The translations under genes were made by a program, and so were the position numbers. From an uncultured Bacilli bacterium (GTDB taxonomy: Bacteria; Bacillota_I; Bacilli_A; RF39; UBA660): a DNA stretch of 64,000 nucleotides. Numbering within the stretch: position 1 is the stretch's first letter; each line of letters begins with the position of its first letter. The notes under the pieces are model-generated. The model made no database searches. It was given only the letters and a program-made list of their open reading frames with translations, and was not told where the DNA came from. This document shows, piece by piece, positions 13,912-63,698 of the stretch. The stretch lies in contig CAKOSH010000002.1 of the NCBI GenBank assembly GCA_934102215.1, positions 87,380 through 151,379 of the forward strand, read 5' to 3'.

Positions 13912-13954
13912 TTTTATGTTGTATAATTATCTATAGTATAGAGGTGTGTGTATT

Positions 13955-16900
13955 ATGAATAAAAAGGTTAAAATATTACTTATTGTTATATCTATAACAG
14001 TATTTTTTTATATTGGATATTATTTTATAAAAAGGGATAATAATTTAATTAATATAACTTCTTTATCTAAAGAATTTGTTGCTACTTATTATAATGAATT
14101 AAGTAAGAGTGATTCTAATGAAGAAAAAGATAATATGCTTATTGTAATTTCTCCTAAAAAAATAAAAAATACTTATGGTGCTTCTAATATTATTGAAGCT
14201 CCTAATAATCAATATATATTACAATATGATTCAAAAGAATTAAAAGATAAAGCATTGAATAAATTAAATAATGATAGGAATATTAAAAGTGTTGAAGAAA
14301 ATGAAACGATTGAATTATTTGAATCTAGTGGTACAAGTGAATTTAGTTATAATTCCTGGGGAATAGAAAAAATGTCATTAAATACCGCTAGTGATTTTGC
14401 TAATAGTCAAGAACTTAATAATGTTAATGTTGCAATAATTGATACTGGACTTGATGTTTTATTATTTAATAAATATTATTCTAGTAAACTAGCTGGAACA
14501 TATAATGTACTAGATAATTCAACTAGTTTAGAAGATACTGATGGACATGGAACACATATTGCTGGAACAATTGCTGAAAGTACACCAAATAATATAAAAA
14601 TATTACCAATTAAGGTTTCAACAAATGGTACAATGTATATAACTGATATTGTTGCTGCTATTAACTATATTGTCTATAACAAAAATGCTGATGTAATTAA
14701 TATGAGTTTTGGAAGTTATTATAATTCAGAATCTTTAGAACAAGCAATTATATCTGCAAATTCTAATAATGTTATTTGTGTTGCTGCTGCTGGAAATGAA
14801 AATACATCTAGGTTGAGTTATCCTGCATCATATGACACTACTATTTCAGTTTCATCTATAGATTCGGAATTAAATAAATCTAGTTTCTCTAATTATGGTT
14901 CAAAAATAACATTTACTGCTCCTGGAACAAACATAAAAAGTATTATGGGAAAAGATACAGATATTTCAATAAAAAATGGTAATAACGATGATGATGATCA
15001 TGAAATAATCAGTGGAACTTCAATGGCTACTCCCCATGTTGTAAGTGCAGTAGCAATATTAAAAAGTTATAATAAAAATTTAACTTTAGAGAATACAATT
15101 GATAATTTAAAAGAAAAAACAATTGATTTAGGAGATCCTGGTTGGGATAAATATTATGGATATGGTTTAATTTCATTTGAAAATGTTGAATTTTGTGATA
15201 AAACATATTGTGATGAATTTGGTATTTTTAAAGATGATAATAAACATATTACAGGATTTAAATTAAATGAATTAATCTTTACAAAATATAATTATTACTC
15301 AATAACTAATCTTTTAGCAAGTAAAATTAATATTACATATAATGATAATTCTAGTGAAATAATGTCATTAGGTGATATATCAAATTTAAAAATATTAAAT
15401 TATGATCCAAATTCTTCTCTTAAACAAACTGTAACATTAAATATTGATGATATCAATTTAGATATAGAAGTTACTAATCCAACAGATTATCTTTCTGGAT
15501 GGGAATATAATGTTTTAGAAGGCGATACAATTGAAATTACTGGTTATAAGAGTCATGATTTAAATATAAAGAAATTATATATTCCTGAAACGATTGATTA
15601 TAAAAATGTTATTTCATTTATAGATAATATTAAGTTTAGTGAGATAAGTCGTGATTTTGATAATTATGAATATTTATATTTACCTGAAAAATTTAATAAA
15701 ATAGGTGACTATAATTTTATAAATAGTAAAATTAAATATTTAGAAGGTGATAGTAAATCAGTAAGTGTTGGAAGTCATAGTTTTGAATCTAGTTCTATTA
15801 TTAAAATTGATATTCCAGTAAGTGATGTTTCTGATTACGCATTTAAAAATTGTTTGGAATTACTATATATAAATATAATTGGTAAATCAACATCAAAAAC
15901 TGCTACTATAGGTGACTATGCATTTTATAATTGTAAGAAATTAGAAAAAGTTTTATCTACAAGTGGCGCTAATACTATGTCATTAGGAAATTATGCATTT
16001 TATGATAATATATCTTTATCTACTTTTGAACTAGATATGCATGATAATATAGGTGAGTATGCATTTTATAATACACAGTCATTATTAGCATTAGAATTGG
16101 GTTATGCTTCTTCTTTTGGTAAATATGCTTTTTATGGTAGTGGTATTTATGAAATTGATCTTTCATATAGATTAGAAGAAATAAATGAATCAACTTTTGA
16201 AAACTGTAAAAATTTGCAAAAAGTTTCTTTTACTGCTGGAAAAATTGGTCCAAGAGCATTTTATAATTCAAATATTAAATATATTTCTTTTAGTGATGTT
16301 AATTATATAAGTGAGAATGCATTTGCGTATAATCCAATTAGTGATGGAAATACAACTGTAAGTGATTCAAAAGTTTATGATTATATCTTTGATGTCGGAA
16401 TATATGAAGTAGCAACAAATAAATTAATAATTGGTTTTTCCGGTAAATCTACTACAAAGAAAAGAGTTGAAATTCCTGATTACATAACTGAAATAGGAAA
16501 TTATGCTTTTACTGGAAATAGTGATTTAAAGGAAATAACAATACCTTCAAGTGTTACAAAAATAGGTGATTATGCGTTTATGGATTGCTATCAATTATCT
16601 AATGTATATTTGCTTGGTAATGATGTAACATTCGGAAGTGAAACATTTAAAAGATTATATGAAGGTGAAATTCAAAGTAACAATTTAAATATATATGTAT
16701 ATAAAGATTCACAAGCAAAACAACTTGTAGAAAATTATGGATTAAATTATAGACATTACGAACCGGATAAATATGAAATATTAAATATGAAAGATAAGTA
16801 TGTTGCTAAAAAATATATTACTGGTGAAGATGTTCCTGTTATTAAGTTAACTTATATTGAAAAAGAAGTAAGAGAAGAAATAGTCAGTGATGAAACATTC

Positions 16901-18205
16901 GCTAATGGTCCTATATCAACTGGTCATGCTTTAAATCTTGAATATGAAAATTCAAATTCTGGTCTTCAATATGGTGATACATATATTATTTTAAATATAA
17001 AAAATAGTTTGGGTTATGTTGTTGCTAGTGATGAGAAGGTTCCAATAGTAGTAGTAAAAGCAACTCCTGTATATACTATTCCTAAAAATATAACTGCAAA
17101 GATTGGACAAAAATTATCAGAAATAGTTCTTCCAGATAACTTTGAATGGATGGATAAAGATGAAATAATTAGTGAAATTGGAAGTGTTATTTATAAAGCA
17201 AAATATATTCCAAATGATACTAAAAATTATGAAATAGTTGAAAATATTGAAATACCTGTGTTGGTTGAAAGTTCAAAGACTATAATAATTCCAGATATAA
17301 GTATAAGTAATAAAACATATGATGGAACTAATAATATTAATGTTTCAAATATTAATATTACAAATTTAGATAAAAATGATTATAGTATTGTTAGTGCTAT
17401 TGCTGAAAATGTAAATGTCGGTGAACAAACAGCTGTAGTAAAATTAAGATTAACAGATGATAAATTTTTATTGTATAGTTTTGAAAATAATGAACAAGAA
17501 AGTGAATTTAGAATTTCATTTAATATTGATAAAGCAGATATTATTTTAGAAGATTTATCAAAAGATGTTCATGTTACTTATGATAATGATTATCATAGTA
17601 TTGATATTAATATCAAATCTAATTTAAATTTTGTTATAAAATATTGTGATGAAAATGGTGAATATAATTTTGATGATTTGCCTAAATATAAAGATATGGG
17701 TAGTTATATTATTAAATATAAAGTGTCTATTGATAATAATTATAATGATTATTATAGTCAAAAAACATTAACAATTAATGACAATGTAACATATATAATT
17801 GAAAAATATAGAGTTATTGAAGATTCACATTATATATCAAGAATTATGCCTAATACTACAAAAGATAAATTTACAAGCAATATTAAGCTTGGAACTGATT
17901 ATTCAGTTAATATTGAAACTATTAAATTAGAAGATAAAGATTTATTATATACAGGTTCTAAAACTAGTATATATAGAGGTTCTAATGTTTATGCTGATTA
18001 CATTAATATAGTAATAGGTGATATTGATGGAGATGCTGAAGTTACATCAAGTGATTTATTAAAAGTAAGACAACATTTAATTGGAACAAAAATACTTGGT
18101 GGAATATATTTATTATCAGCAGATATAGATGATGATGCTGAAATTACATCAAGTGATTTACTTAGAATAAGACAACATCTAATTGGAACAAAGGTAATTT
18201 CTTAA
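13955..18205 (+). CDS. Subtilisin-like serine protease (S8) with BspA-type leucine-rich repeats and a C-terminal double dockerin
   Basis: N-terminal TM/signal anchor. S8 catalytic triad motifs DTGLD, HGTHIAGTIA and GTSMATPHV. Central repeats of the IGDYAFYNC(K)KL type (LRR_5/BspA-like). C-terminus has two 22-residue Ca-binding dockerin-type repeats, GDIDGDAEVTSSDLLKVRQHLIG and ADIDDDAEITSSDLLRIRQHLIG. Start placed at the ATG at 13955 with a GAGGTG RBS. Confidence 0.8.
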   Translation: MNKKVKILLIVISITVFFYIGYYFIKRDNNLINITSLSKEFVATYYNELSKSDSNEEKDNMLIVISPKKIKNTYGASNIIEAPNNQYILQYDSKELKDKALNKLNNDRNIKSVEENETIELFESSGTSEFSYNSWGIEKMSLNTASDFANSQELNNVNVAIIDTGLDVLLFNKYYSSKLAGTYNVLDNSTSLEDTDGHGTHIAGTIAESTPNNIKILPIKVSTNGTMYITDIVAAINYIVYNKNADVINMSFGSYYNSESLEQAIISANSNNVICVAAAGNENTSRLSYPASYDTTISVSSIDSELNKSSFSNYGSKITFTAPGTNIKSIMGKDTDISIKNGNNDDDDHEIISGTSMATPHVVSAVAILKSYNKNLTLENTIDNLKEKTIDLGDPGWDKYYGYGLISFENVEFCDKTYCDEFGIFKDDNKHITGFKLNELIFTKYNYYSITNLLASKINITYNDNSSEIMSLGDISNLKILNYDPNSSLKQTVTLNIDDINLDIEVTNPTDYLSGWEYNVLEGDTIEITGYKSHDLNIKKLYIPETIDYKNVISFIDNIKFSEISRDFDNYEYLYLPEKFNKIGDYNFINSKIKYLEGDSKSVSVGSHSFESSSIIKIDIPVSDVSDYAFKNCLELLYINIIGKSTSKTATIGDYAFYNCKKLEKVLSTSGANTMSLGNYAFYDNISLSTFELDMHDNIGEYAFYNTQSLLALELGYASSFGKYAFYGSGIYEIDLSYRLEEINESTFENCKNLQKVSFTAGKIGPRAFYNSNIKYISFSDVNYISENAFAYNPISDGNTTVSDSKVYDYIFDVGIYEVATNKLIIGFSGKSTTKKRVEIPDYITEIGNYAFTGNSDLKEITIPSSVTKIGDYAFMDCYQLSNVYLLGNDVTFGSETFKRLYEGEIQSNNLNIYVYKDSQAKQLVENYGLNYRHYEPDKYEILNMKDKYVAKKYITGEDVPVIKLTYIEKEVREEIVSDETFANGPISTGHALNLEYENSNSGLQYGDTYIILNIKNSLGYVVASDEKVPIVVVKATPVYTIPKNITAKIGQKLSEIVLPDNFEWMDKDEIISEIGSVIYKAKYIPNDTKNYEIVENIEIPVLVESSKTIIIPDISISNKTYDGTNNINVSNINITNLDKNDYSIVSAIAENVNVGEQTAVVKLRLTDDKFLLYSFENNEQESEFRISFNIDKADIILEDLSKDVHVTYDNDYHSIDINIKSNLNFVIKYCDENGEYNFDDLPKYKDMGSYIIKYKVSIDNNYNDYYSQKTLTINDNVTYIIEKYRVIEDSHYISRIMPNTTKDKFTSNIKLGTDYSVNIETIKLEDKDLLYTGSKTSIYRGSNVYADYINIVIGDIDGDAEVTSSDLLKVRQHLIGTKILGGIYLLSADIDDDAEITSSDLLRIRQHLIGTKVIS

Positions 18206-18215
18206 GGAGGACGAA

Positions 18216-19364
18216 ATGAAGAAGTTAAATAAAATCATTACATTTATGTTAGTATTTATGCTGTTTGGACTTAATGTTCAGGCAGCAAGTGCTAATTTAT
18301 CTGTTAGTAAAAGTAGTATATATGTGGGTGATTCTTTTAATGTGACAGTTAAAGCAAATGGAGTAGCCGCATGGAATATTCATATTTCAGCAAGTGGTCC
18401 TGTTAGTGGTTGTAAGTTAGACCAAGCTGATGCTACTGCTGATGCACTCGATACAAACAAAACATTTAGTGTTACATGTAAATCAACTGGAGAAGGAACA
18501 ATAACTGTAACATTAAAGGGTGATGTTACTAGTAGCAGTGATGGTAAGCCAGTAAAACTATCTAGTAGTAAAACTGTAATTGTTAATAAAAAAACTACTA
18601 CAACTACGACTACTAAGAAAACAACTACAACAGCAAAGAAAACAACAACTACTAAAAAAGTAAATGACACAACTACTACAACAACAAAGAAAGTTACAAC
18701 TACACAAAAAGTAGAGAAAAATAATGATGCAACTCTTAAAAATATAACAGTTGATGGATATGACATTAAATTTAGTAGTAATACTTATGAATATACAATT
18801 AACGTTAAAAATAATGTTAATAAATTAAATTTAAATATATCTAAAAATAATGATAAATCTAATTATGAAATAATTGGAAATGATAAGTTAGTAGCTGGTG
18901 AAAATAATATAACAATTAAAGTTACTGCTGAAGATGGAACTGTAAAAGAATATAAAATTAAGGTTATTAAAGAAAAAGAAAATATTGTTTCCAATAATTT
19001 AACACTTAATAATATTAAAATAGATAATTATGAATTGAATTTCTATAAAGATAATTATGAGTACAATTTAAAAATAAATAATGAAGATAAATTAAATATA
19101 TCAGTAGATATAGATTCTAATTTAAAATACGAAATAAGCGGTAATACTAATTTAAAAAATGGTACTCAAATTATTATAAAAGTAACTGATTCAAATGAAG
19201 AAAGTATTTATAAAATAAATATTAAGAAAGATGAATCAAGTACTTTAAATATATGGATGATTATTTCAATAATATGTTTCATTATTATAATTGTATTATT
19301 AATTTTATATATTAAATTAAAGAATTATCATAAAAAAGAAGATATTGTTGTTATTAATGAATAG
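18216..19364 (+). CDS. Membrane-anchored surface protein with an N-terminal beta-sandwich (possibly cohesin/Ig-like) domain, Thr-rich linker and cadherin-like repeats
   Basis: Signal peptide MKKLNKIITFMLVFMLFGLNVQA. A roughly 100-aa domain (SIYVGDSFNVTVKANG...). A poly-Thr linker (TTTTTTTKKTTTT...). Three repeats of the type ATLKNITVDGYDIKFSSNTYEYTINV. C-terminal TM plus KLKNYHKKE tail. Confidence 0.6.
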   Translation: MKKLNKIITFMLVFMLFGLNVQAASANLSVSKSSIYVGDSFNVTVKANGVAAWNIHISASGPVSGCKLDQADATADALDTNKTFSVTCKSTGEGTITVTLKGDVTSSSDGKPVKLSSSKTVIVNKKTTTTTTTKKTTTTAKKTTTTKKVNDTTTTTTKKVTTTQKVEKNNDATLKNITVDGYDIKFSSNTYEYTINVKNNVNKLNLNISKNNDKSNYEIIGNDKLVAGENNITIKVTAEDGTVKEYKIKVIKEKENIVSNNLTLNNIKIDNYELNFYKDNYEYNLKINNEDKLNISVDIDSNLKYEISGNTNLKNGTQIIIKVTDSNEESIYKINIKKDESSTLNIWMIISIICFIIIIVLLILYIKLKNYHKKEDIVVINE

Positions 19365-19388
19365 GTACTAGAAATAGTACTTTTTCTT
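19364..19388 (+). terminator. Rho-independent terminator GGTACTA-GAAA-TAGTAC followed by TTTTTCTTTT
   Basis: Overlaps the TAG stop at 19362-19364. Same hairpin sequence as at 13894. Confidence 0.5.
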
Positions 19389-19424
19389 TTGATAAAGTGT
19401 TTACAATGTATGTTTAAATGTGAT

Positions 19425-19860
19425 AAACTATTATTAGTGAAGCACCTGACCCCTGTAGGCTAGGTATCACACTAATTGTGTTTGAACCTAACTACAAAGT
19501 GAGTTAGGTGATTTTTTTAATCTATGAAGATTAAAGAAATTATTATAAAAAGTAATATGAATATAATAACAAGTAAAAAACTTATTAAAAAATCTTTCTT
19601 ACTCATATAATATCACCTCCTTATTAGAAAAATAATGGAAGTGACACCTAGCCTCAAGTGCTTCGATATGTAGAGTAGCATATATATATAAGTAATGCAA
19701 ATAGGTAAAATTTAATTTTGAGATAGTTTTTCATATTGAAAATTCAATTATTCCCTAGGCGAAAATTTAATTATGAATTATATTTTAGTATGCAAAATTC
19801 AATTTTAAGTAAATTTCAAAAAAATTTATCAATCATATAAAACAAAATGCGAATAGTTTC
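19425..19860 (-). other. Conserved structured element, copy 1: upstream repeats, 5' stem, SD, 29-aa hydrophobic peptide ORF, 3' hairpin and 3' stem. Type I toxin-antitoxin-like
   Basis: Reverse-complement homolog of 61665-62070. 5' stem GGCTAGGTGTCAC (RC of 19641-19653) pairs with 3' GTGATACCTAGCC (RC of 19458-19470). Hairpin ACCTAACT-N8-AGTTAGGT at 19486-19509. Four AAAATT(C/T)AATTTT-type repeats at 19706-19805. Confidence 0.5.
19517..19606 (-). CDS. Small hydrophobic membrane peptide (29 aa), putative type I toxin-like
   Basis: Minus-strand translation gives MSKKDFLISFLLVIIFILLFIIISLIFID, preceded by AAGGAGGTGA. A paralog lies at 61891-61977. Absent from the ORF track because it is below the size cut-off. 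Confidence 0.5.
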   Translation of the reverse strand: MSKKDFLISFLLVIIFILLFIIISLIFID

Positions 19861-19901
19861 ATCTTCTATAATAAATTTCAATCATAAACATATACTTTAC
19901 T

Positions 19902-61510: not shown

Positions 61511-61664
61511 TTTTAACTTGCCTCCTCTTTTTAAGCCAAATATAATTTAACATAAAAAAGTAGTTAAGTAAAGTAAAAAATGACTTTTTTATGATATTTT
61601 GTGATTAATTGGTAATATAAATGAGATAATTTTATTATTTAATTATAAAATGTAACATTTTTAA

Positions 61665-62070
61665 AAATTAGTTAAAATTCAATTTTAGAAATCAATAATT
61701 GAATTTTTCTATATAGTTTTAGTAATTATTGACATTAAATTTTTATCGAAATTAAATTTTGAAATAATACTTGATGTGATAATTAAATTTTACCAATTTG
61801 TATCATTATTTCATATGTGTTAATCTACCACTGAAGTGCCTGAGGCTAGGCGTCACCTTCATTATTTTAAAAATAGGGAGGTGGTATTATATGAGTAAAA
61901 AAGATTTATTAATAAGTTTATTACTTATTATTTATATATTACTTGCTATAATAATTTTATTAATTATTTATAACTAATAAAATCGCCTAACTCACTTTGT
62001 AGTTAGGCAAAACACACATTGTGACGCCTAGCCACAGGGGGTCAGGTGCTTCACTAACAATAGTTTATCA
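61665..62070 (+). other. Conserved structured element, copy 2 (paralog of 19425-19860, inverted): upstream repeats, 5' stem, SD, 28-aa peptide ORF, 3' hairpin and 3' stem
   Basis: 5' stem GGCTAGGCGTCAC (61844-61856) is perfectly complementary to GTGACGCCTAGCC (62021-62033). Hairpin GCCTAACT-N8-AGTTAGGC at 61985-62008. AAAATTCAATTTT repeats at 61674, 61698 (reverse complement), 61750 and 61782. Confidence 0.5.
61891..61977 (+). CDS. Small hydrophobic membrane peptide (28 aa), putative type I toxin-like
   Basis: MSKKDLLISLLLIIYILLAIIILLIIYN behind a GGGAGGTGG SD. Paralog of the peptide at 19517-19606. Confidence 0.5.
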   Translation: MSKKDLLISLLLIIYILLAIIILLIIYN

Positions 62071-62303
62071 TAATTTAATATATATTGTAAATGATTAATA
62101 ATAATTTTTATTTGCTATAACTTATTTAAATGGTAAAATGCAATTTACGTAAAATTGCGATAATATCAAGAGAAAATGCAAGATTTCCTCTTGATTTTTA
62201 ATAAAAAATATGTAAAATATATGCTGAAAGAAGGAAATTATTGCATACTAAAACGATTTTTGATTATTTTTCAAAAATTAAATGCAAAAAATAAATTGTA
62301 ATA

Positions 62304-63547
62304 ATCAATTGTTTTCTTTCATTAATGTTAATCTTATTTTTTTAAGATTTTGTAACTAAGATTAACATCTTCCTTAGGAATATCCCTAAGGCTTAATGCT
62401 TTATAGACATCTTCACCATATTTATTTTTAAATAGTGAAGATGGAGTTTGATAATTCAAACTCTTTCTTTGAACGTTATTGATATTATTCATGATATCAT
62501 CAACGTTCTTTTTTGTTAGTGTATCAAAAGATATGCCTTTTTGAAGTACATATCTTATAAACTCATGATTTCTTTCTATAGAACCTTTTTGCCAAGATGA
62601 GTAAGATTCAGTGTAAAATAAATTTACCAATTTTTCACCAGTTTCTGAATCTATCTCTATTTCTACTGGCAAAGAAAATTCCCAACCATTATCTGTTAAA
62701 ATAACTTCAAACATTGATTTAAATGTATCATTATCTAATTTCTTTTTTAAATAATTAAATACCTTTGTAACTTCAGATGGTTTATATTTATTTATAAGAA
62801 ACATAAGCATCAGTTTTTCACTTTTAAAGAATAGTGTCATAATGCATTTAACATCTTCAAATTTACCAATTACTGTATCCATTTCAACAATGTTTGCATT
62901 AGGGTGTTTATTGATATATTCCAGGTAATCACTGTATCTACGACCTGCTTTTATAGAATTGTTGTTTGAAATAGTTTTAACAGTTTCTTTTCTTTCTCTT
63001 TTCTTATAAGCAAATGATCTAGATAACATCTCATCATTTATACTTGGGAAATAGCCTTTATGAACATATTTATAAAATGTTTGAATGCTTTTAGGAAACT
63101 CTTCTTCTATTTCATGAAAGATATGCATTATTGGTTGATTTTTATCTTTAATTCTATCTTTAAAGAAATCATTCCAGTATTCAACTTCATCTATTGTCAT
63201 ATCTATTCCAATTCTTGAATATTTTAATTTGTTTTCGTAATCCTTCTGAGCTTCTCTAAAGTTATAATAATACTTTCTTTTGTGACAATATGTTTTCTCA
63301 GAACATCCTTGGCATACAAATGGAAATCTATTAGTTTTCTCACAAGCAAGAGTAAGTTTATTTGATTTTCTTCTTTCTTTTATTTCTCTTGATATAGTTG
63401 AAGATTGAACTTCAATAACTCTAGCTATATCTTTTAGTTTATAATTTTCTTTTAATAAGTTTTCAATTAACATTCTGTCCTCAATTGTAAGTCTTTCTTT
63501 TTTCATTTTTTAAAACCTCCTTCATATAAAGAAAACAATTGATTGAG
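62304..63547 (-). mobile_element. IS30-family insertion sequence
   Basis: A roughly 1.24 kb unit bounded by imperfect terminal inverted repeats. AATCAATTGTTTTCTTT at about 62306-62322 matches the reverse complement of 63528-63546. It carries a single transposase ORF. Confidence 0.7.
62334..63506 (-). CDS. IS30-family DDE transposase
   Basis: N-terminal HTH LTIEDRMLIENLLKENYKLKDIARVIEVQSSTISREIKERR matches the IS30 pattern (...STISRE.kR.). DDE residues lie in EMDTV, ILTDNGWEF and SIERNH. Confidence 0.8.
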   Translation of the reverse strand: MKKERLTIEDRMLIENLLKENYKLKDIARVIEVQSSTISREIKERRKSNKLTLACEKTNRFPFVCQGCSEKTYCHKRKYYYNFREAQKDYENKLKYSRIGIDMTIDEVEYWNDFFKDRIKDKNQPIMHIFHEIEEEFPKSIQTFYKYVHKGYFPSINDEMLSRSFAYKKRERKETVKTISNNNSIKAGRRYSDYLEYINKHPNANIVEMDTVIGKFEDVKCIMTLFFKSEKLMLMFLINKYKPSEVTKVFNYLKKKLDNDTFKSMFEVILTDNGWEFSLPVEIEIDSETGEKLVNLFYTESYSSWQKGSIERNHEFIRYVLQKGISFDTLTKKNVDDIMNNINNVQRKSLNYQTPSSLFKNKYGEDVYKALSLRDIPKEDVNLSYKILKK

Positions 63548-63698
63548 TAATATTAAACACTATTAAATGATTAAATGCAACTACGATATTTTTGAAACAT
63601 AAAAGTTGCATTATGCTATTTAAGTAATATTTTATTTGCTATAAATTGACTTTTTTAAAATATTTTAGTATTATATACTCAAAATTGGTGGGGTAAGT

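Follow-up and report, generated by a model that had tools for sequence, protein, structure and literature searches.

What are the two homologous elements, each with a short open reading frame (ORF) inside a long RNA fold and a predicted antisense RNA at its 3' end, that lie in a 64,000-nucleotide (nt) stretch of the genome of an uncultured Bacilli bacterium (contig CAKOSH010000002.1; the whole stretch is referred to here as the window)? We consider each copy to be, probably, a self-contained chromosomal type I toxin-antitoxin-like module, and the modules to form a probable new family of a known kind. The generic features of type I systems can be read directly: a hydrophobic ORF of less than 60 amino acids (aa), an antisense unit with its own promoter and terminator, and sequestration of the Shine-Dalgarno (SD) sequence. 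An initial annotation of the window had proposed much the same; all of its predictions that can be tested in silico held, and the sequence supports its interpretation.

The two copies occupy the following positions, where position 1 is the first letter of the window:

About 19392 to 19850, minus strand: copy 1, the whole module of about 460 bp, comprising an AT-palindrome array, the toxin promoter, the toxin mRNA and the antisense promoter.
About 61660 to 62098, plus strand: copy 2, the whole module.

Copies 1 and 2 are homologous, with a mean column identity of 83% in an alignment of about 470 nt that includes the promoters. The homology noted in the initial annotation is therefore real, but the extent it gave, roughly 250 bp, is too small. 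The limits of copy 1 are the points where similarity to non-syntenic copies ends, as judged by blastn and by alignment of upstream and downstream sequence. Copy 1 is syntenic in five relatives, and other copies of the family sit among unrelated neighbours, so that the module is bounded at about 19392-19850. Two cores of 20-22 nt each occur exactly twice in the window, where none would be expected by chance, and an nhmmer search of the window with the family profile retrieved just these two copies and no third.

Exact-pattern scans of species-representative genomes and metagenome contigs yielded 43 copies, of which 36 are distinct. At least four genomes and a large number of gut metagenome contigs contribute to them, and all these numbers are minima, since an exact 18-20-mer was required for retrieval. 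Three copies belong to Clostridium sp. CAG:524 and at least five to CP091739.1, the 1.53-Mb chromosome of a metagenome-assembled genome (MAG). A 'Bacilli bacterium' MAG and an uncultured MAG hold one each, and the rest come from contigs of human-gut and other metagenomes, several of which carry two copies. A candidate for a further diverged copy, a weak nhmmer match in L015 and L025, was rejected as the N-terminus of a prepilin-like gene.

In both copies, a long-range helix ties the predicted start of the mRNA to the 3' untranslated region (UTR). This closing helix consists of 23 bp in two sub-helices, whose arms lie about 190 nt apart:

19641 to 19664, minus strand: copy 1, 5' arm GAAGCACUUGAGGCUAGGUGUCAC, from RNAfold, alignment and pair counts.
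19439 to 19470, minus strand: copy 1, 3' arm, made up of GUGAUACCUAGCC (19470-19458) and CAGGUGCUUC (19448-19439).
61833 to 61856, plus strand: copy 2, 5' arm GAAGUGCCUGAGGCUAGGCGUCAC.
62021 to 62033 and 62043 to 62052, plus strand: copy 2, 3' arm.

The complementary arms quoted in the initial annotation are indeed present (GGCTAGGTGTCAC/GTGATACCTAGCC in copy 1 and GGCTAGGCGTCAC/GTGACGCCTAGCC in copy 2), but the helix is longer than the 13-nt stem described there. Both of the differences it reported between the copies, a U-A to C-G exchange and one position that goes from G-U to G-C, are found. On the 3' side, the sub-helices are separated by a conserved 9-nt G-rich bulge (UACAGGGGU at 19449-19457 in copy 1, ACAGGGGGU at 62034-62042 in copy 2). 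The sequence of this bulge looks SD-like.

RNAfold gives the predicted transcripts energies of -77.8 kcal/mol (copy 1) and -76.1 kcal/mol (copy 2). Dinucleotide shuffles average -39 and -41 kcal/mol, corresponding to z-scores of -9.3 and -8.1, and none of 200 folds as well; divergent relatives fold with z-scores of -5 to -9. Conservation of the structure was tested on alignment A2, which contains 24 full-length copies. RNAalifold recovers both the closing helix and a hairpin close to the stop codon, and 99.1% of the 529 cells that make up the 23 named helix pairs are standard pairs, with five cells unpaired. When the 3' partners are slid by one to three columns as a control, just 30-41% remain paired. 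Two pairs changed on both sides, 20/235 (U-A 17, C-G 5, U-G 1) and 22/233 (U-A 22, C-G 1), and two more pass through three states by way of G-U: C-G, U-G and U-A at pair 6/257, and G-U, G-C and A-U at pair 21/234. The functional RNA structure that had been proposed to enclose the ORF is borne out by these energies and by a helix kept in the 24 copies with compensatory and G-U-mediated changes.

The same data bear on the idea that the hairpins are terminators or regulatory signals of neighbouring genes and that the long-range complementarity is a by-product of duplication. Both copies are intergenic and adjoin gene ends, and context hairpins follow many of the copies, as this explanation would have it. 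The module occurs beside unrelated neighbours, however; its widely separated arms change in coordination, and the z-scores of the fold fall far outside those of the shuffles. We give this explanation almost no weight.

Enclosed by the helix is an ORF that starts, in each window copy, 9 nt after a GGAGG SD:

19517 to 19606, minus strand: copy 1, ORF of 29 aa (MSKKDFLISFLLVIIFILLFIIISLIFID) from the ORF list, the candidate toxin.
61891 to 61977, plus strand: copy 2, ORF of 28 aa (MSKKDLLISLLLIIYILLAIIILLIIYN), with its SD GGAGG, sequestered, at 61877-61881.
19615 to 19642, minus strand: copy 1, SD-sequestering hairpin of the minimum-free-energy structure, in which the anti-SD ACUUCC (19642-19637) pairs with GGAGGU (19620-19615).

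Peptides of 28-29 aa behind a strong SD had been reported, and the ORFs found are of 29 and 28 aa with GGAGG in both. Across the family, the peptide has 27-29 aa, MSKKD followed by about 23 hydrophobic residues, with one predicted transmembrane helix. The N-terminus MSKK(D/E) is invariant, and the remainder is rich in I, L, V and F up to the C-terminus. Copy 2, whose ORF is one codon shorter than those of its closest relatives (28 vs 29 aa), has lost that codon relative to them.

Is the ORF translated, or is it fortuitous? In the second case, the module would be a structured repeat without coding function: a small mobile element or a gene for a structured RNA. The unit is multi-copy and about 460 bp long, its homology breaks off sharply at non-syntenic sites, and in a genome of 24% GC, U-rich codons readily yield hydrophobic ORFs. 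The coding signal argues otherwise. The start, frame and SD and the length of 27-29 codons are kept in the short-read copies, apart from one duplication of 12 nt (L028:6825-7068, DFLISFLIS..., 33 aa), which is in frame. The ratio of nonsynonymous to synonymous variation (pN/pS) is below 1 in all divergent pairs, at 0.22-0.85. Variable sites at codon positions 1, 2 and 3 number 13, 6 and 16, so that position 2, which fixes hydrophobicity, is the most conserved. The copies from CP091739.1 (L005, L014, L017) were left out of this coding analysis; shifts in the length of T-runs break their ORFs, and these shifts look like homopolymer sequencing errors, not real frameshifts. In addition, alignments of the copies reveal neither terminal inverted repeats nor target duplications at the module borders, by which transposon-like ends were rejected, and the module has no Rfam match. 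A repeat with a chance ORF is thus very improbable.

The SD is not covered by the long helix. The adjoining ACUUCC pairs with GGAGGU, and the SD is therefore hidden in a hairpin stacked on the closing helix, with AU-rich hairpins following in the ORF region of the predicted mRNA. In copy 1, the unpaired probability of the SD is 0.00 whether the mRNA is free, antisense-bound or nascent. Columns 26-60 of alignment A2 divide the 5' UTRs into two classes. Class 1, which includes both window copies, has the short anti-SD hairpin that fully buries the SD; its unpaired probability is at most 0.03 in the two window copies and seven relatives (nine class 1 copies). In class 2, a further hairpin of about 15 nt (UUUUCUG...CAGAAGA or ...CAGGGGGG) is inserted after the 5' arm and before the SD.

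Convergent to this mRNA, we find the signals of an antisense unit in both copies:

19400 to 19429, plus strand: copy 1, antisense promoter, TTTACA, 18 nt, (TG)A-TAAACT, by consensus scan.
62062 to 62091, minus strand: copy 2, antisense promoter, TTTACA, 18 nt, (TG)A-TAAACT, by consensus scan.
19486 to 19509, no strand assigned: copy 1, stop-proximal hairpin and antisense terminator, followed by T7 on the plus strand, by terminator scan.
61983 to 62010, no strand assigned: copy 2, stop-proximal hairpin, which is the minus-strand antisense terminator, by terminator scan.
19436 to 19519, plus strand: copy 1, predicted antisense RNA of about 85 nt, the candidate antitoxin, with ends deduced from promoter and terminator.
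About 62055 to 61973, minus strand: copy 2, predicted antisense RNA, with ends deduced in the same way.

The initial annotation had pointed to a motif on the opposite strand just beyond the 3' stem that could drive such an RNA. Its hexamers and their spacing (18 nt from TTTACA to TAAACT, with a TG upstream of the latter) are conserved, the sequence of the spacer is not, and a terminator is present in both copies. Over 39 distinct sequences, conservation is 99% in the -35, 98% in the -10, 84% in the constant-length spacer and 66% in the flank beyond the -35; hexamers conserved above both spacer and flank are what a real promoter would be expected to show. The terminator hairpin is followed by T7 or TTTTATT on the antisense strand. 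Read on the toxin strand, the same hairpin presents the loop CACUUUGU, with the YUNR (U-turn) motif UUUG. At its outer pair, 18 copies have A-U and 5 have G-C, and the two window copies differ in this way too, in line with the covariation that had been reported for it. Because retrieval required an exact match, each search core is bound in part to look invariant; even so, all 22 nt of the hairpin are invariant in the copies retrieved by the other search pattern.

Running through the toxin 3' UTR on the opposite strand, the predicted antisense RNA is complementary to this region with the entire 3' arm of the closing helix; its own 3' end falls at the toxin stop codon. Against the 5' region of the mRNA, its duplex energy is no better than that of dinucleotide shuffles in seven copies; action in trans on the 5' UTR or SD, as in fst or sprA1, is ruled out by these shuffle-level energies.

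On the toxin strand, a promoter can be read upstream of the closing helix:

19672 to 19700, minus strand: copy 1, predicted toxin promoter, read from the sequence, TTGCAT (19700-19695), 17 nt, TG-n-TACTCT (-10 at 19677-19672); predicted start G19664.
61798 to 61826, plus strand: copy 2, predicted toxin promoter, TTGTAT, 17 nt, TG-n-TAATCT; predicted start G61833.

The promoter of copy 1 is weak, matching 3 of 6 positions in each hexamer, and falls below detection in the consensus scan. The TTG of the -35 and the TGnTAnnyT of the extended -10 are kept in nearly all full-length copies, the promoter as a whole reading TTGnaT, 17 nt, TGnTAnyyT, and the predicted start coincides with the G at which pairing of the closing helix begins. 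At the other end, family homology stops at the antisense -35.

Several relatives have lost parts of the module. L008:3298-3705 is a decayed copy, without toxin promoter, 5' arm and SD, in which the ORF and the antisense unit are retained. The 5' part of L007:914-1321, also decayed, has been replaced by an unrelated hairpin, and L021:7305-7415 is an orphan fragment consisting of the 3' UTR and antisense segment alone. In two further copies (L022:4015-4256 and L036:2413-2653), the SD is mutated to GGAGATG. Loss of the toxin side with the antisense half kept is as expected if the peptide is harmful.

These copies help to weigh another reading of the module, according to which it is not a toxin-antitoxin system but a conserved gene for a small membrane protein, regulated by a cis-antisense RNA. 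The peptide would then serve the physiology of the cell, for instance by modulating the membrane or as a small protein linked to stress or sporulation. The anatomy described above proves a structured mRNA for a hydrophobic peptide and an antisense unit, not toxicity, and the setting is a housekeeping chromosome, not a plasmid or prophage; both speak for a small protein. What does not fit are the diverging paralogues in multiple copies per small genome, the decayed copies L008 and L021, which kept the antisense half and lost the toxin promoter and SD, the mutated SDs of L022 and L036, and the extreme translational masking. Together, these are a hallmark of type I toxins, not of ordinary small proteins. 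We judge the small-protein reading, in which the RNA structure would just tune stability and translation, unlikely.

We therefore return to the type I module, against which a number of observations have to be set. First, the covariation is limited: a change on both sides is seen in just 2 of the 23 pairs, and in control (a) 19 of 500 shuffles equal or exceed the observed value. The covariation of the helix amounts to a few events among closely related copies, independent events being few because the copies are so closely related, and it lends support without being overwhelming. More weight falls on the thermodynamic signal and on the slid controls. Second, masking of the SD is partial in silico in class 2, with an unpaired probability of 0.1-0.6. 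Third, when the antisense-bound state is modelled by forbidding pairing of the overlapped region, the nine class 1 copies keep their SD masked just as before, and the class 2 copies respond in no uniform way. A switch like that of SR4, in which the antisense RNA frees the 5' arm to mask the SD, is thus not supported, nor is translational control by the antisense RNA. Fourth, the terminator scan finds no terminator-like site on the toxin strand inside the module in either copy; because the conserved module contains no intrinsic terminator, the 3' end of the toxin mRNA is undefined. Fifth, four peptides searched against Pfam and NCBIfam at E-values up to 10 match no toxin family, including Fst, Ldr, TxpA, Hok and PepA1, and the tandem of both window peptides has no match at E up to 10 in a collection of predicted proteins. 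A SecE match with an E-value of 0.0065 was dismissed as noise, below the family cut-off.

The RNA is equally without known relatives. Rfam yields no family at gathering score across the window and none of relevance at E up to 10 in 19300-19900, and literature searches found no description of this module family. Judging from these searches, the module does not appear to be a member of any described family. For BsrG/SR4, the absence of homology rests on the Pfam, NCBIfam and Rfam libraries, whose BsrG/SR4 content is unverified.

By architecture, the closest system is bsrG/SR4 of the B. subtilis SPbeta prophage, to which bsrE/SR5 is related. Its architecture is experimentally proven (PMC3834814; PMC6562991). 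In bsrG, nt 1-35 pair with nt 232-262 as helix P1, and the SD lies in SL1 atop P1 (PMC3834814). The terminator loop of SR4 contacts loop L3 of bsrG before SR4 goes on to pair with the 3' arm of P1 (PMC3834814). In both systems, a long 5'-3' helix encloses an SD stem-loop and the ORF; the antisense RNA is convergent at the 3' end, with a terminator loop complementary to a toxin loop near the stop codon and a body that covers the 3' arm. Both also encode a small hydrophobic peptide in a low-GC Gram-positive host (PMC3834814, PMC6562991).

The differences from bsrG/SR4 are considerable, however. There is no sequence relationship, the peptide having no family match and the RNA no Rfam match. BsrG has 38 aa, whereas the peptide of the module has 27-29 aa, a charged N-terminus and a hydrophobic stretch that runs to the C-terminal end. 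The antisense RNA of the module, at about 85 nt, stops at the stop codon, whereas the antisense RNAs of BsrE, BsrG and BsrH overlap the ORF (PMC8594479). The terminator of bsrG itself lies one nucleotide past P1, and the module has none. Binding of SR4 extends SD masking from 4 to 8 bp, a switch that we do not see in silico here. Finally, the module is present in multiple copies in a housekeeping chromosome, and bsrG is found in a prophage.

The initial annotation had taken the fold-back elements of hok and fst as its models. The fold-back principle is indeed shared with hok, but hok and fst are both more distant than bsrG/SR4 (PMC3834814). In hok/sok of plasmid R1 and aapA/IsoA of Helicobacter pylori, a 5'-3' interaction (fold-back inhibition in hok) holds the full-length mRNA inert and stable, small hairpins mask the SD during transcription, and several chromosomal copies exist (PMC6733600). 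There, in contrast, the anti-SD comes from the long-range helix itself (PMC6733600) and the mRNA becomes active on 3' trimming, whereas the anti-SD of the module is local. Their antisense RNAs lie on the 5' side, over leader or ORF (PMC8594479), and that of the module is confined to the 3' UTR; their hosts are Gram-negative. With no Hok profile or Sok match and no antisense RNA on the 5' side over a mok leader, the module shares with hok/sok the fold-back principle alone.

Like the module, fst/RNAII (par of pAD1) and sprA1/SprA1as are Gram-positive systems with convergent RNAs, in which the overlap of the antisense RNA spares the ORF and is confined to the 3' UTR (PMC8594479). A 5' stem-loop contains the SD, and the initial contact of fst/RNAII is loop-to-loop (PMC6562991). 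Their functional pairing occurs at the 5' translation initiation region, however, where the complementarity of the module antisense is at shuffle level. Fst peptides also have a charged C-terminal tail, and no Fst, Ldr or PepA1 profile matches here. The likeness to Fst, Ldr and TxpA toxins claimed for the peptides thus stands as far as a hydrophobic peptide under coding-type conservation is concerned, but profile searches give no family membership. In txpA/RatA, from the B. subtilis skin element, the antisense RNA overlaps the 3' end, control is by RNase III-dependent decay alone and the SD lies in a stem (PMC6562991). No homology to txpA/RatA was detected; the RatA overlap includes the ORF according to T1TAdb (PMC8594479), and the consulted sections describing txpA mention no 5'-3' closing helix. 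Its decay mechanism is the one we infer for the module.

How might the module work? The toxin promoter would drive an mRNA of about 230 nt whose first base we place at the foot of the 23-bp helix. Within this helix would lie the anti-SD/SD hairpin, the ORF with its AU-rich hairpins and the stop-proximal hairpin. The promoter just past the 3' arm on the other strand would drive the antisense RNA of about 85 nt, ending at the complement of the stop-proximal hairpin. If the analogy with bsrG/SR4 and txpA/RatA holds, the toxin mRNA, closed by pairing of its ends and with its SD masked, would be stable and poorly translated. First contact would be made between the terminator loop of the antisense RNA and the complementary loop of the toxin hairpin with its U-turn motif, after which the antisense RNA would invade the 3' arm of the closing helix to form an 85-bp duplex. 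RNase III would cut this duplex, opening both mRNA ends to decay. Should the antisense RNA be lost, the peptide would presumably build up in the membrane and harm the cell. Control at the level of decay is the best-supported of the mechanisms that remain, with its late steps taken from txpA/RatA and bsrG/SR4.

Upstream of the toxin promoter, both copies carry an array of AT palindromes:

19707-17, 19739-49, 19762-72 and 19794-804, minus strand: copy 1, four palindromes, (A/T)AAATT-N-AATTTT.
61674-84, 61697-707, 61750-60 and 61781-91, plus strand: copy 2, palindromes, with a degenerate fifth near 61733.

The palindromes are 13 bp long. In copy 1, their centres are spaced by 32, 23 and 32 nt, and the proximal one falls at about -45 to -57. 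The motif AATTRAATTTT has nine matches in the window, where 3.1 would be expected, and eight of the nine lie inside the two modules. Non-syntenic copies keep the array, which may serve as operators, as an upstream promoter (UP) element or as curved DNA. A more specific joint reading, possible though doubtful, is that this undescribed family is confined to uncultured gut Firmicutes with genomes of about 1.5 Mb and 24% GC, that the antitoxin acts solely by opening the helix between the mRNA ends, which would make protection of these ends and not access to the SD the regulated step, that the terminator-less mRNA is trimmed from its 3' end back to the helix, and that a palindrome-binding protein governs toxin transcription.

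Both copies are set in a housekeeping chromosome, with yqfD, ybeY, cdd, era, recO, dnaK, pepF, dnaG, murB and rpsD between or around them. Searches of plasmid and phage collections with blastn gave no match to the module, and scans of viral contigs for it gave chance high-GC matches or nothing. An insertion of the IS30 family, about 1.5 kb long, occupies 62124-63629 of the window, some 30 nt past the copy 2 antisense promoter; its transposase (62334-63506, minus strand) has an HTH_38 domain, and the insertion is bracketed by the 18-nt direct repeat TTTTATTTGCTATAA(C/A)TT. It is missing from seven related, otherwise collinear metagenome contigs. Upstream of copy 1, 13946-19364 encodes two proteins. 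The first, secreted and 1419 aa long, combines a subtilase S8 domain with a dockerin and BspA-type leucine-rich repeats; the second, of 382 aa, carries a cadherin-like domain and is anchored to the membrane at its C-terminus.

Type I families have a narrow distribution and are hard to find by homology, and most are known from a few model species. If our interpretation is true, the module adds to them a family whose hosts are uncultured gut bacteria of humans and animals, with reduced genomes; a specialist would otherwise find it unsurprising. The 43 natural variants, decayed copies included, already amount to a small set of mutants in closing helix, SD hairpin and peptide that could guide experiments. 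Our interpretation would also mean that the bsrG-type design, a 5'-3' closed mRNA with a masked SD and a 3' antisense RNA that attacks the closing helix, recurs in the absence of sequence homology. Such recurrence would suggest either convergence or very old conservation of an RNA-level solution.

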